A DNA stretch of 64,000 nucleotides from an uncultured virus (IMG/VR IMGVR_UViG_2643221865_000004) (IMGVR_UViG_2643221865_000004); one strand, 5' to 3'; shown: positions 787 through 63,055, counted from the first letter of the stretch. Notes: a model not told the origin generated them from the letters alone. Numbers and translations are program-made.

Positions 787-868
787 GTGGTGCGTGTGTC
801 CTTCTGTGTTGGAGGGGCTTCGTGTCCTACATGGGCGGAATGTTGCGGTTCTGCGTGGGTCGGCAGGC

Positions 869-1873
869 TCACTCACCGAACGGGGTGCCGCAGCTGAGGC
901 AGTTCCCGCGGAGTGAGAACGGCTCTTCGGTGTCGCAGGTGTCGCAGTCGCGCCAGGCGAACGCCTTCGGGTGCTTGTTAAGCCATGTGCCGAGGGCGTG
1001 CTCGCCTTCAGCTTCCTGGACTGCGTACGCCTCGTCTTCGAATGCTTCGTCGAGGCACTTCAGGTGGATCATCAGGTCGTGGTTGAACCCGTACATGCTG
1101 TTGTTGCCGTACGCGCCGTTCAGGCTGTTGTGAAGCTCGACGATCTTCGTCTCCTTCTCCATCCGCTCGGCAGCTCCCTCGATGGTCAGCGGGAAGGGGT
1201 TCTCGTCGGTTTCCTCGACGGTGAACTGCAGCTCCACGTCCTCCCAGGTGTAGCCGTCAACGTCGGCGCCGTACTTCTCTTTCACCCATGCTTCGAACGC
1301 GTCCACGTGGTAGTTCAGGTAGGTGTCGATGTCGCCACTGATTTCCTCACCAACGGCGGCGACGGGGTTGACGACGATCCCGCCGGTGATCCGAAGCTTG
1401 CCTTCAGATGAGCGGCTGACCTCGATGCGGTCCGCGTAGGCGTGGCCGATGACGGACGGCATGTACTGCTCACCGTCTCCGTGTTCGATGCTTCCGAACT
1501 GGGACTCAGCCGCGACGAGCCGCTCGTACCGGGTCACCTGGGCGGCGAGTTCGGCGTTACCGGAGTCATCGGCGAGCTCCTGGCGGAGGATTTCCAACGT
1601 CATGCTGTTGAAGGCGGCCGCGGCAGCAGCTTCGATCTCCTCGGCGGTCTTGCCGTCGGCGATGAAGAAGTCGAAGCTGCGGTGGTCGATGCCGGAGCCG
1701 ACCGTCTCAGAGACAGTGAAGATGTTGTCGTCGATCTGCTGGATGCGGAGCTCCTCACCTTCGCTGCTGAAGAAGTGGGTGCCGCCGCCGGCGTTGACCC
1801 ACTTCTCGGGCAGGTCGTAGCTCTTGAAGGTGAAGGTGCCGTCGCCGAGGCGGGGCTGGATCTTGTTGGTCAT
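869..1873 (-). CDS. Hypothetical acidic protein with N-terminal RLGDGTFTFK tag and C-terminal Zn ribbon
   Basis: 334-aa ORF; CDTC...CLSC at C-terminus; CACACCTA motif 6 nt before ATG. Confidence 0.7.
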   Translation of the reverse strand: MTNKIQPRLGDGTFTFKSYDLPEKWVNAGGGTHFFSSEGEELRIQQIDDNIFTVSETVGSGIDHRSFDFFIADGKTAEEIEAAAAAAFNSMTLEILRQELADDSGNAELAAQVTRYERLVAAESQFGSIEHGDGEQYMPSVIGHAYADRIEVSRSSEGKLRITGGIVVNPVAAVGEEISGDIDTYLNYHVDAFEAWVKEKYGADVDGYTWEDVELQFTVEETDENPFPLTIEGAAERMEKETKIVELHNSLNGAYGNNSMYGFNHDLMIHLKCLDEAFEDEAYAVQEAEGEHALGTWLNKHPKAFAWRDCDTCDTEEPFSLRGNCLSCGTPFGE

Positions 1874-1915
1874 GCACCGTAGGTGTGTGGCCAGCCCAGC
1901 CTCGGGGAGCCGGAC

Positions 1916-2215
1916 CTACTGCCGCCAGTTCGACGGGGCGTGGTTCTCCTCGACGGCCGCCTTGTGCTCAGGGCTGGCGTACAGGCGGAGGATGTGGATG
2001 CACGGGTCCGATCCCTCCTCGAACTCCTCAGCCTCCTCACGGCTGAGCGGGGTGATCGGGAGGGCCAGCTGGTCCTCCTCGTAGGCGGCCTCCTCAGCTT
2101 CGCTCATCGGGAACCCATCGTGGGTCTCGCAGATGCCGGGGCCGACAAAACCGGCCTCAAGGCCGATCCTCAGCCACTCGTAGATGTCGAGCTCGGGCTT
2201 GATGGTGTCTGTCAT
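1916..2215 (-). CDS. Hypothetical small protein (phage-like)
   Basis: ORF with AGGAAGG SD before MTDTIK; GCCACATG motif at 2259-2266. Confidence 0.6.
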   Translation of the reverse strand: MTDTIKPELDIYEWLRIGLEAGFVGPGICETHDGFPMSEAEEAAYEEDQLALPITPLSREEAEEFEEGSDPCIHILRLYASPEHKAAVEENHAPSNWRQ

Positions 2216-2405
2216 GGCTTGCGCCTTCCTCATGGGGAGCGGGGGTGTGCCATGAGGGCATGTGGCGAGTATCTATGGAGCGGTGCGCCGTGCGTTGGCG
2301 GCCGAGCGGAACCCAAGTTGCGGAAATCCTAGGCACCCCGTGCTCCGCCGTGCAGTATTCTGAGCGGCACTCACATCACCGATTGCTCCACCCGAAGGAG
2401 ACCAG

Positions 2406-3128
2406 ATGGAGATTCAGCGGAACACGCCGGTGGCACGCAGCTCGGGCGCCAGCCTGAGCATCGGCGGGAAGACGGCACCGCTCGAGCGAAAGTTTGCCGG
2501 GGCCACAAAAGTGGACGTCGGGTTCGTCTTCGACACCACAGGTTCGATGTCGGCGAAACGCGACAGCCTGATCGAGAGCATGAGCGGGTTCATCGACGAG
2601 CTCGCCGGCCTCGGCCTGGACTGGCGTGTGTCAGCGATCCCGTTCGGTGACCTCACCGTCCCTGGGGACCGGATCGACTCAGCATTGCCGTTCGTGACCA
2701 ACGTCGCCGAAGCCAAGCAGCAACTGCGGGGAATGCCGCAGTTCTCTGGTGGCGGCAACGAGGGCGAATCGTCGATCGAGGCGATGTCCGCGGCGGTAGG
2801 CAAAGCTTGGCGCAACGACGCGGTGAAGGTCCTTGTGCTGCTGACTGATGACTATGCGTTGAACGTCAACCGCGCCACGGAGATCACGAGCCTGCTCACC
2901 CAGACCCAAACGCTGTGCTTCGCGGCAGCTCTCGACACCGGGTACTACCGGGACTGGTGCACCAAGTCCGGGGGAGAGTGGACGGAGATCGCCTCCACCA
3001 TGGACACGGGATCTGTCCTCCGCCTCATTCGGACGCTGGTCTCGAAAGTCGCGATCACCGCGGCAGCGGTTCATGCAGTCGGCGGCGGCTCCGTCAGGAA
3101 GTACCTGGAGATCACGGGGCGCAGTTGA
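2406..3128 (+). CDS. von Willebrand factor A (vWA) domain protein
   Basis: MIDAS motif FVFDTTGSM, GGGNEGES, LLTD; AAGGAG SD. Confidence 0.85.
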   Translation: MEIQRNTPVARSSGASLSIGGKTAPLERKFAGATKVDVGFVFDTTGSMSAKRDSLIESMSGFIDELAGLGLDWRVSAIPFGDLTVPGDRIDSALPFVTNVAEAKQQLRGMPQFSGGGNEGESSIEAMSAAVGKAWRNDAVKVLVLLTDDYALNVNRATEITSLLTQTQTLCFAAALDTGYYRDWCTKSGGEWTEIASTMDTGSVLRLIRTLVSKVAITAAAVHAVGGGSVRKYLEITGRS

Positions 3129-61810: not shown

Positions 61811-61996
61811 TCAGAGGCGGATGAGGATGACGTTCACCGGGACGTGGTCCGGCACTTGGTTCAGTTCGCGGATCCGGGCGGACAGCGCATCCCGCAACTC
61901 ATGTGGTGAGGCGGCCTCCATCCGGACGGACGGGTTTCGGACTGCACCGGTCCAGGTGCCGTCCTCGTAGGTGACGTCTGCAGCGAAGCTGCTCAT
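61811..61996 (-). CDS. Small hypothetical protein (HicB-like fold possible)
   Basis: 61 aa, beta-beta-beta-alpha pattern; weak. Confidence 0.4.
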   Translation of the reverse strand: MSSFAADVTYEDGTWTGAVRNPSVRMEAASPHELRDALSARIRELNQVPDHVPVNVILIRL

Positions 61997-62029
61997 GGGT
62001 GATCACTCTTCCACTCGGCGTCGTTTCTG

Positions 62030-62377
62030 TCAGCCTTCGGTGTGGAACACCCTGACGTAGCGGTGGAGCACGAGGGCTGCGTGGGTGACGGAGTCGGCGG
62101 CGGTGAAGTCGTCGGAGTAGGTGAGCGCGTTCGCGATCAGCCAGTACACGCCGTCTTCCGTGCTGTCCTGCTCGTCGGGGTCGTCGAGGTCCTCGAACCC
62201 GGGGATGAAGTACGTCCCAGCACCGGGTTCGGCGAGTTCGTCCCAGTGTCGGCCGAGCTGGTACAGCCATTCGACTGCAGCGGATACCGGGTTTTCGGAC
62301 TCGGTGACGTATTCGCGGAACTCCGCGAGGATGAGGTTGGGTTCAGCTGAACCGAGCCCGGAGGTGAGCGTATTCAT
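62030..62377 (-). CDS. Hypothetical acidic protein
   Basis: GGAGA SD; GCCACATG at 62401-62408. Confidence 0.55.
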   Translation of the reverse strand: MNTLTSGLGSAEPNLILAEFREYVTESENPVSAAVEWLYQLGRHWDELAEPGAGTYFIPGFEDLDDPDEQDSTEDGVYWLIANALTYSDDFTAADSVTHAALVLHRYVRVFHTEG

Positions 62378-62422
62378 AGGTTCTCCATTCAGGATGGAGC
62401 CATGTGGCAGCTCGCCTGACGG

Positions 62423-63001
62423 TCAGCTGTGAGCTGTGCAGAACCTGTCGATGTCGGCCACATCCGCGGCGGTGATCCCGACAGCTTCATCGGTGGCGAT
62501 GAGCAGGCCGGGGATGCCGGCGGCCACATCGTCGATGTTGAACGCCCGGTTGATGAGCCGTTCGCCGGCGATCTCGACGTCGTCCGCCCAGATGAACGGC
62601 TGGCCTGTGTGGGCGACCCGGGCTCGGAGGGCGTTCAGTTTCCAGCGGGCGTCGCGGAAGCCGCGGACCCGCGGTGGGATCTTGGCCAGCACGAAACCGC
62701 CGGCGAGCTTCCCTCCCAGGGCCTGGTCGACGAGAGCGCGGGCGTTCGGCCCCCAGGTGGTCAGCCACCCCAGCTCGATCTGGTGGGTGCGGATGGTGTC
62801 GTCGAGCGCTGCGATGATGTCGGCGTCGAAGTCGATGACGTACTTCTGCCCGTGCGCGGTGCGGACCAGCACCCGGGTCAGACGAGCGGACGGAGCCTTC
62901 TTCTTGGTGTTCTCCTCGAAGACGTTGATGACACCGTCGACGTCCAGCGCGAGAAGCGGTCGGGAGCCGTCGAACAGGTCGATCGGGAGGAGGGTTTCCA
63001 T
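62423..63001 (-). CDS. HAD-superfamily protein (RNA-repair-type HAD)
   Basis: LALDVDGVIN, WLTTW, WK, FIWADD. Confidence 0.75.
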   Translation of the reverse strand: METLLPIDLFDGSRPLLALDVDGVINVFEENTKKKAPSARLTRVLVRTAHGQKYVIDFDADIIAALDDTIRTHQIELGWLTTWGPNARALVDQALGGKLAGGFVLAKIPPRVRGFRDARWKLNALRARVAHTGQPFIWADDVEIAGERLINRAFNIDDVAAGIPGLLIATDEAVGITAADVADIDRFCTAHS

Positions 63002-63055
63002 GCCACCATCATGTGCGGACGCGCAATGTCTTGCCTGCACGCTAGTCTCAGCGGC

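Follow-up and report, generated by a model that had tools for sequence, protein, structure and literature searches.

Three classes of promoter-like boxes, many spaced for leaderless translation, on a giant plasmid-like replicon

Introduction

How are the genes of a mobile element transcribed when the same few short words stand in front of gene after gene? This question is raised by a 64,000-nucleotide stretch of DNA catalogued as an uncultured virus (IMGVR_UViG_2643221865_000004), the whole of which we call the window. An initial annotation counted about 48 copies of CACA/CGCA motifs in it at fixed distances from start codons and sorted them into classes A, B and C. It proposed that they are -10-like elements for an element-encoded sigma factor or activator, producing leaderless mRNAs, possibly in temporal classes as in large phages. 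In this study, we followed the motifs through the window, the contig to which it belongs, the rest of the same genome and related plasmids. Our verdict from these sequence comparisons is that the motifs are real, element-specific core promoters.

Results

Motif copies and spacing

In the window, class A (GCCACATG-N10-RTG) had 10 matches against 0.08 expected from 100 shuffles, class B (CGCRCATR-N8-RTG) had 9 against 0.27, and class C (CACACYTA-N6/7-ATG) had 9 against 0.01. Every fixed-spacing site named by the initial annotation was recovered (10, 9 and 9, respectively). When distance was disregarded, we counted 22 copies of GCCACATG (2.7 expected), 15 of CCGCRCATR (2.9 expected) and 11 of CACACYTA. 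These add up to 48, the number first estimated, and a TCGCGCATA site at 24589 comes in addition. A box at exact spacing preceded 27 window genes in our gene call; a 28th, at 18065, heads an in-frame start upstream of the one chosen by the gene caller. Another 18 window genes had a box 24-92 nt upstream, and tandem genes lying only 20-60 nt apart had a box each. The annotation was also right that the vWA-DnaJ genes (2406-5534) and the triplet at 6322-7907 lack the motifs, none of which occurs within 130 nt of them.

The window is positions 509971-573970 of contig C5, which measures 701,121 bp in a 4.54-Mb assembly of 11 contigs. Spacing was counted from the motif to a start codon opening a reading frame of at least 60 amino acids, independently of gene calls. 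Class A copies stood at N10 in 49 of 156 cases on C5 vs 1 of 72 on the other contigs, and class B copies at N8 in 52 of 244 vs 8 of 499. For class C, the numbers were 32 of 84 vs 1 of 22 at N6 and 21 of 84 vs 1 of 22 at N7. None of the classes gave a spacing peak in the other contigs (3.84 Mb). C5 held 156 of the 228 genomic copies of GCCACATG and 84 of the 106 of CACACYTA, in both cases spread along its whole length, which left 72 and 22 for the remaining 3.84 Mb. The check proposed with the annotation, motif enrichment upstream of genes over coding sequence and the host chromosome, was run with 7-mers and came out positive: the top de novo intergenic 7-mers of C5 were fragments of the boxes, 13-28 times enriched over C5 coding DNA, and the other contigs had no spacing peak.

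Orientation was nearly absolute. Boxes pointing toward a gene start numbered 133 (A), 172 (B), 14 (B2, the CGCGCATAG variant) and 75 (C), 394 in total; those pointing toward a gene end numbered 2, 3, 0 and 0, 5 in total. Inside genes there were 21, 24, 1 and 9. A motif lay within 130 nt of 280 of the 473 operon heads of C5.

Sequence logos placed all three classes in one register relative to the start codon. They share CCRCA at -17..-13: the two C at -17/-16, R at -15, C at -14 and, in most cases, A at -13. After this shared half, class A continues with T-12 and G-11 (TG(C/T)C.. at -12..-7), class B with C-12, A-11, T-10, G-9 and a weaker t-8 (CATGT(A/T)) followed by GGtG at -6..-3, and class C with C-12, A-11, C-10, C-9, T-8 and A-7 (CACCTA). 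The A at -11 is thus kept in classes B and C and not in class A. In these logos, position -1 is C in every class. Class B has an extra upstream box, Ca.aacc (CAgAAAC-like), at about -32..-26; classes A and C carry no information upstream of -20 and have no -35 partner.

Predicted start sites and leaderless genes

Genes on C5 were called with our own codon-usage caller, and the choice of start for the 152 genes with exact spacing was guided by the motif. Distances from box to start on this contig were bimodal: they took either the exact value or 22 nt and more, with none at 13-21 nt. Leaders were mostly 15-50 nt long. A Shine-Dalgarno (SD)-like word preceded 6 of the 152 exact-spacing genes vs 307 of the 704 other genes, so that the absence of an SD at fixed spacing, first noticed in the window, holds contig-wide. 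The start codons of the 152 genes were 135 ATG and 17 GTG, with no TTG. The mycobacterial study PMC4633059, in the parts drawn on here, reports that, for leaderless initiation, an RTG placed at the transcription start is both necessary and sufficient, TTG and CTG being ineffective; the starts found on C5 agree with this rule.

A second indication came from intergenic sites without a start codon at the offset. At 130 such class B sites, +1 was G in 80% and A in 19%, and -1 was C in 45% and T in 45%. At 88 such class A sites, the corresponding values were G 68%, A 24%, C 45% and T 42%. The GGTG of class B was also kept at sites with a leader. Transcription start sites typically show such a pyrimidine-purine pair. 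Fixed spacing, bimodal distances, the kept pyrimidine-purine pair, orientation, SD absence and confinement to the element together argue, indirectly, for promoters with +1 at the start codon. Leaderless mRNAs from the exact-spacing genes are, by this sequence logic, well supported. In a leaderless message, the AUG has to stand at the very 5' end, so each tandem gene would require its own box.

The host's own promoters

Leaderless promoters of actinobacteria have the hexamer consensus TANNNT about 6-7 nt before RTG. On the chromosome contig C1, the enriched intergenic 6-mers were TAGACT, TAGGCT, TAGGGT and TAGCGT. TANNNT stood before starts at N6 in 93 and at N7 in 42 of 1019 genes on C1, and at N6 in 11 and N7 in 7 of 856 genes on C5. 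Judged from these counts, the housekeeping leaderless promoter of the host is TANNNT-N6/7, of the canonical actinobacterial type. The logos of the C5 boxes show no TANNNT at -12..-7, where CATGT(A/T), CACCTA or TG(C/T)C.. stands instead. The proposal of -10-like elements giving leaderless mRNAs stands in part: the motifs behave as core promoters with the start site at the start codon, but they span -18..-7 and are not -10 hexamers of the TANNNT type.

One chromosomal island of low GC content (C1:~472000-480000; 58-65% nearby) contained 10 motif words, mostly class-B-like, counted at C1:472-479 kb as CCGCRCATR, GCCACATG or CACACYTA. Two of them stood at leaderless spacing before called genes, and a few of the island's proteins were weakly similar to those of C5. 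This island probably represents an integrated relative in which the same code is in use. Outside this genome, in which the class C 12-mer GCCRCACACCTA occurs 53 times, none of 200 further genomes from the family had more than 3 copies of it. A class B 21-mer pattern gave 18 scattered single matches in unrelated taxa among 185,579 species (one genome each), about the level of chance by a rough estimate. In the 1-Mb Arthrobacter plasmid AP024649, there were only 2 CCRCACA-N10-ATG sites, and no spacing peak appeared in the 400 kb examined. Full-text searches with motif strings, megaplasmid topics and plasmid names found no published description of this code or of the promoters of these plasmids.

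The replicon and its sister plasmids

The GC content of C5 was 65.2%, vs 67.9-69.3% in the seven other contigs above 90 kb (62.7-69.3% across all ten). The assembly scores as 100% complete, with 2.3% contamination, and C5 therefore contributes no marker genes to it. Pfam and PHROG searches of its 197 proteins of at least 300 amino acids found plasmid functions (RepA_C, ParA-like, FtsK/TraB-like ATPases, pilus-type ATPases, ArdC, DarB-like) and no capsid, portal or credible terminase. Replication and nucleotide genes comprised DnaE, GyrAB, NrdEF, two LigA genes and thyA. The identity of a phage was rejected after the 82 Pfam-negative proteins in this size range had been compared with PHROGs, again without capsid, portal or credible terminase: the only matches were Ig-like 'Hoc/virion' domains, FtsK-like ATPases, DarB-like and ParA-like proteins, and most of the 82 had no PHROG match either. 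The likeness to large phages drawn in the initial annotation consequently does not hold for the element, which is plasmid-like (RepA, ParA, FtsK/TraB-like proteins, pilus ATPases). The nearest relatives of its RepA are Curtobacterium plasmids of 546-607 kb. On account of its plasmid genes, the lack of added markers and these RepA relatives, we treat C5 as a giant plasmid-like replicon of a Microbacteriaceae-type host, the family being that of the RepA relatives.

Aragorn predicted 42 tRNAs and a tmRNA on C5. The tmRNA and 41 of the tRNA genes lie at C5:5894-22352 and 692440-700623, at both contig ends, so that the array probably runs across a circular junction. RNA-repair-type genes flank it: RtcB, Ro60/TROVE, RNA ligase, Thg1-like, PTH2, HAD 'Swiss army knife', RlaP and a CCA-type nucleotidyltransferase.

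In three Curtobacterium plasmids above 500 kb (D40, pCPAA3 and pS16), we found CCGCGCATAG-N7-ATG in the same register. RepA of C5 is 41-43% identical to those of this clade and 41% to that of D40 (NZ_CP126274.1, 607,661 bp), with which the tRNA array was compared (36 tRNAs in D40 for 42 plus tmRNA in C5). Matches to D40 proteins were found for 203 of the 856 C5 proteins, with a median identity of 40%. The top intergenic 7-mers of D40 were CGCATAG-type words; GCATAG stood at N7 in 64 and at N8 in 33 of 220 cases, and GCACACAT at N7 in 15 of 25. The D40 logos read tCCGCGCATAGa.G.GgC-ATG and CGCCGCACACATGC..G.C-ATG, with CCGCR at -17..-13 and C at -1. In pCPAA3, a plasmid of Curtobacterium pusillum AA3, CCGCRCAT-N9-RTG had 58 occurrences against 1 in the control, and in pS16 it had 49 against 2. 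Three smaller plasmids with a related RepA, from Frondihabitans, Cnuibacter and Curtobacterium (pTCL), yielded only 2, 0 and 2. Classes A and C were absent from D40, where 9 copies of GCCACATG and 8 of CACACYTA were found, none at class spacing. By its related RepA, the shared gene core and CCGCR at -17..-13 before leaderless starts, C5 groups with the Microbacteriaceae plasmids above 500 kb. In the portions of the literature cited here, pCPAA3 figures solely as a 'giant plasmid' that carries a tmRNA and genes of DNA polymerase III (PMC8929003, PMC10832533).

Candidate factors

Four genes of the sigma family are encoded on C5. The product of g117 is FliA-like, its gene lying beside flagellar genes, and that of g388 is a classical extracytoplasmic function (ECF) sigma; both match Pfam regions 2 and 4. 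The gene g388 lies in a stretch of C5 (300-340 kb) without GCCACATG or CACACYTA, where class-B-type words persist. The other two, g452 (C5:356507-357157) and g614 (C5:475959-476735), are paralogues 29% identical to each other, and match sigma region 4 only. In a profile search, they retrieved only themselves below 1e-30, followed by ECF sigmas aligned end to end (positions about 15-200), and no close homologue of either. A word-indexed search likewise gave no close homologue of g614 besides itself; a 30%-identical relative of it is present in the Arthrobacter plasmid AP024649. The predicted fold of this type had CnrH, SigW, AlgU, SigK and sigmaE as top PDB matches, with a mean predicted local distance difference test score of 79.5. 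By profile and predicted fold, g452 and g614 are divergent ECF-like sigma paralogues. Upstream of both stand an SD and, by eye, a TANNNT-like hexamer; they appear to be expressed from host-type promoters, which fits with their expression by the host first. Both genes and classes A and C are present in C5, and all are absent from D40.

Other kinds of reader were also sought. A T7-like polymerase (PF00940) had no match at E<=1 in the whole genome, a weak negative as control genomes gave none either. No match to beta-prime Rpb1_2 was found on C5, and a DxDGD-type catalytic motif was found in none of its large proteins. A Pfam scan of 78 of the 87 non-flagellar proteins below 300 amino acids shared by C5 and D40 found no sigma factor, WhiB or classical helix-turn-helix regulator; of the other 9, all in the window region, 4 were scanned with Pfam among 53 window reading frames. 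The same scan showed a multi-copy family with the helicase-associated (HA) domain PF03457, and about 30 proteins had no match. At least seven paralogous HA-repeat proteins, possibly binding nucleic acids, are encoded on C5 and shared with D40. Examples on C5 are as follows:
L019:10601-11284, HA-repeat protein
L021:4929-5402, HA-repeat protein
L021:19282-19776, HA-repeat protein
L022:4055-5766, HA-repeat protein
L022:9463-9864, HA-repeat protein
L025:16339-17010, HA-repeat protein

Classes and their genes

A crude test for hydrophobic N-termini was positive for 18 of 47 class A genes, 10 of 52 class B genes, 0 of 53 class C genes and 168 of 704 box-less genes. Of the genes with an annotation, those for Ig-repeat giants, the GH5 cellulase and a pilus ATPase follow class A boxes, and helicase, cas3, exonuclease, LigA, ParA-like and ArdC genes follow boxes of classes B and C. 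Since the classes differ in the kind of protein they head, they look like regulons.

Sites in the window

The exact-spacing sites were located by pattern match, with gene names from reading-frame annotation (and the gene overlap at 42501 from the gene call):
18065..18085, plus strand, class A box GCCACATG-N10-ATG
23143..23163, plus strand, class A box with GTG start
38990..39010, plus strand, class A box and ATG
42501..42521, plus strand, class A box and ATG, overlapping the end of the upstream gene
45181..45201, plus strand, class A box and ATG
48179..48199, plus strand, class A box and GTG
50889..50909, plus strand, class A box and ATG
52896..52916, minus strand, class A box and GTG
55025..55045, minus strand, class A box and ATG of the GH5 cellulase/CBM2 gene
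59263..59283, minus strand, class A box and ATG
9252..9270, minus strand, class B box CGCRCATR-N8-GTG
18749..18767, plus strand, class B box and ATG
23106..23124, minus strand, class B box and GTG of a helicase gene, back to back with the class A box at 23143
24589..24607, plus strand, class B variant TCGCGCATAGAG and ATG of cas3
27426..27444, plus strand, class B box and ATG, before cse1/cse2-like genes
36770..36788, plus strand, class B box and ATG
47849..47867, plus strand, class B box and GTG
61753..61771, minus strand, class B box and ATG of an RNase T-like exonuclease gene
62999..63017, minus strand, class B box and ATG
1871..1887, minus strand, class C box CACACCTA-N6-ATG
17212..17229, minus strand, class C box, N7
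18039..18056, minus strand, class C box, N7, back to back with the class A box at 18065
34708..34724, minus strand, class C box, N6
38271..38287, minus strand, class C box, N6
43000..43017, plus strand, class C box, N7, and ATG of a NAD-dependent DNA ligase gene
49672..49688, minus strand, class C box, N6, divergent pair with 49709..49725
49709..49725, plus strand, class C box, N6, divergent pair with 49672..49688
60931..60948, minus strand, class C box, N7, exonuclease gene

Divergent boxes stand 8-20 nt apart at 49672-49725 (C/C), 18039-18085 (C/A) and 23106-23163 (B/A). At such back-to-back pairs, the footprints of two polymerases would overlap.

The remaining copies come from the copy count, combined with the gene call except at the last two sites (and with annotation at 58519). 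The link made in the initial annotation between a distant motif and an SD was borne out at all three genes it named, which open the list:
39860..39867, plus strand, class A box with leader, 36 nt before thyA, SD AGGA
34114..34121, minus strand, class A box with leader, 59 nt before gene 33723-34055, SD AAGG
55889..55897, minus strand, class B box with leader, 25 nt before gene 55111-55863, SD GAGG
2259..2266, minus strand, class A box with leader, 26 nt
14159..14166, minus strand, class A box with leader, 35 nt, SD
15037..15044, minus strand, class A box with leader, 39 nt, SD
38301..38308, plus strand, class A box with leader, 32 nt
41056..41063, plus strand, class A box with leader, 53 nt, SD
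46192..46199, plus strand, class A box with leader, 48 nt
56284..56291, plus strand, class A box with leader, 41 nt
58577..58584, minus strand, class A box in the intergenic gap upstream of gene 57350-58459
62401..62408, minus strand, class A box with leader, 24 nt, SD
6201..6209, minus strand, class B box, 92 nt upstream of an Ltp-lipoprotein gene
32246..32254, plus strand, class B box within the cas operon, 52 nt before gene 32307
38612..38620, plus strand, class B variant (CATA) with leader, 66 nt, SD
46911..46919, plus strand, class B box with leader, 34 nt
58519..58527, minus strand, class B box with leader, 59 nt before the MazZ-like gene, SD
56961..56969, minus strand, class B word
26632..26639, minus strand, GCCACATG antisense within cas3, a chance copy or an internal antisense promoter

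Neighbouring genes of the window and of C5

Type I-E-like cas genes occupy window positions 24605-33661 (cas3, a Cse1 and a Cse2 match in one long frame, cas5), and the class B boxes at 24589 and 27426 head them. A minus-strand gene at 57353-58504 encodes an N-terminal domain of dATP/dGTP diphosphohydrolase (MazZ-type, PF18909), which we take to be linked to 2-aminoadenine DNA in phages. The gene at 52985-55060 (minus strand), of the class A leaderless type, encodes a GH5 cellulase with a CBM2 cellulose-binding domain. A search of sequencing runs for words sampled from window 36000-45900 listed no RNA run; besides the probable source DNA run, it gave one soil metagenome run containing 7% of the words, possibly from a related soil element.

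Elsewhere on C5, a complete-looking flagellar cluster with its own FliA-like sigma lies at C5:98512-131981 and is also found in D40; on C5, it is a single long gene run without the boxes. At C5 ~204000-212100 (L012:17024-19728, L013:2728-8078), there is a DUF2397/DUF2398/SbcC-like/DUF3323+DUF2399 gene set, presumably the makeup of a Wadjet-type anti-plasmid system.

Discussion

In this study, we found three related classes of boxes that are largely confined to one plasmid-like replicon and stand at a fixed distance from its start codons. We think it likely, with room for doubt, that the boxes are core promoters of C5 read by the host core polymerase with an element-supplied factor, and that +1 is the fixed purine. 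C5 probably runs its own transcription programme, in which many messages start exactly at the start codon. The promoter would be one contiguous block at about -18..-7, made of the shared CCRCA half and a class-specific half at -12..-7, and transcription would start at the fixed purine after a pyrimidine. In about 150 genes, this purine would be the A or G of the start codon, giving a leaderless mRNA translated by 70S ribosomes without an SD; at about 250 other sites, it would open a leader of at least 14 nt that carries an ordinary SD. An element-supplied specificity factor on the host core RNA polymerase is proposed because the host's housekeeping promoters differ (TANNNT-N6/7), and the best candidates would be g452 and g614.

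Several observations weigh against this explanation. The +1 position is itself read from the DNA, and the count of 152 exact-spacing genes used motif-guided start choice. No A, B or C box was found within 700 nt upstream of g388 or g614; for the other two genes, the search gave one GCCACAT upstream of g117 and one CCACACA word within the coding region of g452. Nothing points to autoregulation, since such a motif precedes none of the sigma genes. The sole link of g452 and g614 to the boxes is their co-occurrence with classes A and C, drawn from one comparison, and the pairing of factors with classes is inferred. No homologue of either was found in D40, which shares the class-B-like code, so the shared class-B-like box must have another reader. 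Known ECF sigmas need a -35 box, their consensus being an AAC-type -35 and a CGT-type -10 about 16-17 nt apart. This layout was not found: classes A and C have no conserved upstream positions, and in class B, the AAC (-29..-27) is only about 10 nt from the CGC (-16..-14), not 16-17. Orthologues of C5 and D40 also share leaderless status weakly (9 on both sides, 26 and 23 on one side only, 124 on neither). The element-encoded sigma factor of the initial annotation is accordingly upheld in part: C5 does carry four sigma genes, two of them divergent and ECF-like, but the motifs do not precede them and nothing ties any of them to a class.

The boxes might instead be read by a sigma factor of the host, primary or alternative, without any element factor, if the plasmid clade had evolved a strong non-canonical consensus. 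The class-B-like code is common to C5 and three Curtobacterium plasmids whose only shared sigma is FliA-like, classes B and C retain A at -11, and the chromosome encodes 14 of the 16 sigma region-2 matches of the genome. We nevertheless regard this as rather unlikely, since no class has a chromosomal spacing peak, the host's own leaderless promoters are TANNNT-N6/7, and the sole chromosomal class-B-like cluster is the low-GC island at C1:472-479 kb; no box lies within 700 nt before any chromosomal sigma gene, except one CCGCACA word. If the boxes were operators of a plasmid-wide repressor or activator, comparable to IncP KorA/KorB control, weak host-type promoters would have to have escaped recognition beneath them. 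A palindromic core in class B (CACATGTG), CACATGT/ACATGTG as the top enriched 7-mer and the multi-copy HA-domain family (PF03457) common to C5 and D40 would suit such a regulator, as would a bifidobacterial megaplasmid that, in the part of the report used here, has a 34-bp motif over the -10 box at 6+13 promoters (PMC10832533). What makes operators improbable is that the blocks lack symmetry and keep a strict orientation (394 facing gene starts vs 5 facing gene ends), that no TANNNT lies under or beside them, that they keep single-base register with the start codon and the pyrimidine-purine pair, and that about 400 sites are far above known operator sets.

It is very improbable that the boxes act in RNA, as a translation-initiation or processing signal in a short 5' untranslated region that replaces the SD, with promoters elsewhere. 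About 250 boxes lie 22-130 nt upstream of genes with their own SD, which would be senseless for a fixed-distance translation signal; GGTG and the pyrimidine-purine pair are kept at those distant sites too, class B has an additional conserved upstream DNA box, and distances of 13-21 nt do not occur. These points stand against the fixed distance to start codons without an SD, the boxes before tandem genes just 20-60 nt apart, and a pairing that the GGTG of class B could form with the 3' end of 16S rRNA. Least probable of all, in our estimate, is an element-encoded RNA polymerase, single-subunit or of an unrecognised two-barrel type, that reads contiguous -18..+1 blocks as T7 polymerase does. One contiguous block abutting +1 without a -35 in classes A and C would suit it, and many large C5 proteins lack a family match (82 of at least 300 amino acids are Pfam-negative, most also PHROG-negative); the polymerase searches described above speak against it, weakly so for PF00940, where the controls were negative too, and further through the lack of beta-prime Rpb1_2 on C5 and of DxDGD-type motifs in its large proteins.

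The preferred explanation, promoters read with an element-supplied factor, has a close parallel in plasmid pBS32 of Bacillus subtilis. The sections of PMC6751061 used here describe its SigN (ZpdN), on biochemical and Rend-seq evidence, as a plasmid sigma through which the host RNA polymerase is brought to a set of plasmid promoters that have a consensus of their own, and its gene as having host (SigA) promoters plus a SigN-dependent one. As far as that account goes, C5 resembles pBS32 as a large plasmid with its own sigma genes, which on C5 appear from sequence to be under host-type promoters. It differs in having about 400 sites in three classes, largely leaderless, with related codes in sister plasmids, and in being known from sequence alone. 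It also differs in that no private box precedes g452 or g614, whereas SigN has a SigN-dependent promoter (PMC6751061).

Compared with the actinobacterial leaderless promoters described in the cited parts of PMC4633059, the C5 promoter likewise abuts the reading frame, lacks an SD and uses only ATG and GTG. The C5 box is nevertheless a 12-nt block, not TANNNT, is found on one replicon only, and shares with that type only A-11, in classes B and C. By their defining boxes, the C5 code is not a member of the TANNNT or ECF promoter families.

Phage sigma factors have promoter sets of their own: T4 gp55 for late genes (a single -10-type box, no -35), SPO1 gp28 and gp33/34, and the ECF-like gp36 of phiEco32. 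There, too, a mobile element rewires the host polymerase to a private consensus, with several classes and single-box promoters; C5 differs in its plasmid hallmarks, and no virion genes were found on it. In Cluster K mycobacteriophages, start-associated sequences contain the SD and are thought to act in translation. These resemble the C5 boxes as a conserved asymmetric word a few bases upstream of many start codons in an actinobacterial mobile element, but the boxes have no SD and also stand far upstream of SD-bearing genes.

The Bifidobacterium breve megaplasmid pMP7017 carries, according to the passages of PMC10832533 drawn on, a 34-bp motif over the -10 box at 6+13 sites, covering about 24% of its coding capacity. 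From that account, it is like C5 an actinobacterial megaplasmid with a tRNA array, a tmRNA and a plasmid-specific sequence at many promoters. The difference is that its motif holds a canonical TATACT -10 on TTGACA-N17-TATAAT promoters, whereas C5 replaces the canonical -10 (PMC10832533).

A broader conjecture, which we put forward as speculative and doubtful, is that Microbacteriaceae plasmids above 500 kb run a near-complete expression layer orthogonal to the host. It would comprise hundreds of -35-less, one-per-gene leaderless promoters (shared CCRCA plus an exchangeable half), a near-full tRNA set of their own, tmRNA and RNA repair. The shared half would be read by a conserved non-sigma factor, for example an unannotated or HA-domain protein common to C5 and D40, and lineage-specific g452 and g614 would add classes, so that specificity would be split between two proteins.

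The usual assumption is that a plasmid uses the housekeeping promoters of its host and adds, if anything, a small regulon; on C5, 280 of 473 operon heads have a non-host word within 130 nt, and its sister plasmids, found in another genus, possess a cognate code. The motif alone can delimit such elements and their chromosomal fragments. If the promoter explanation is true, giant plasmids, in much the way of large phages, can keep their transcription insulated from that of the host. C5 and its sister plasmids would then be a natural system for the diversification of sigma/promoter specificity, with a shared half and a variable half, and for why the leaderless design forces one promoter per gene. 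They would also offer a ready-made orthogonal promoter set for high-GC actinobacteria.

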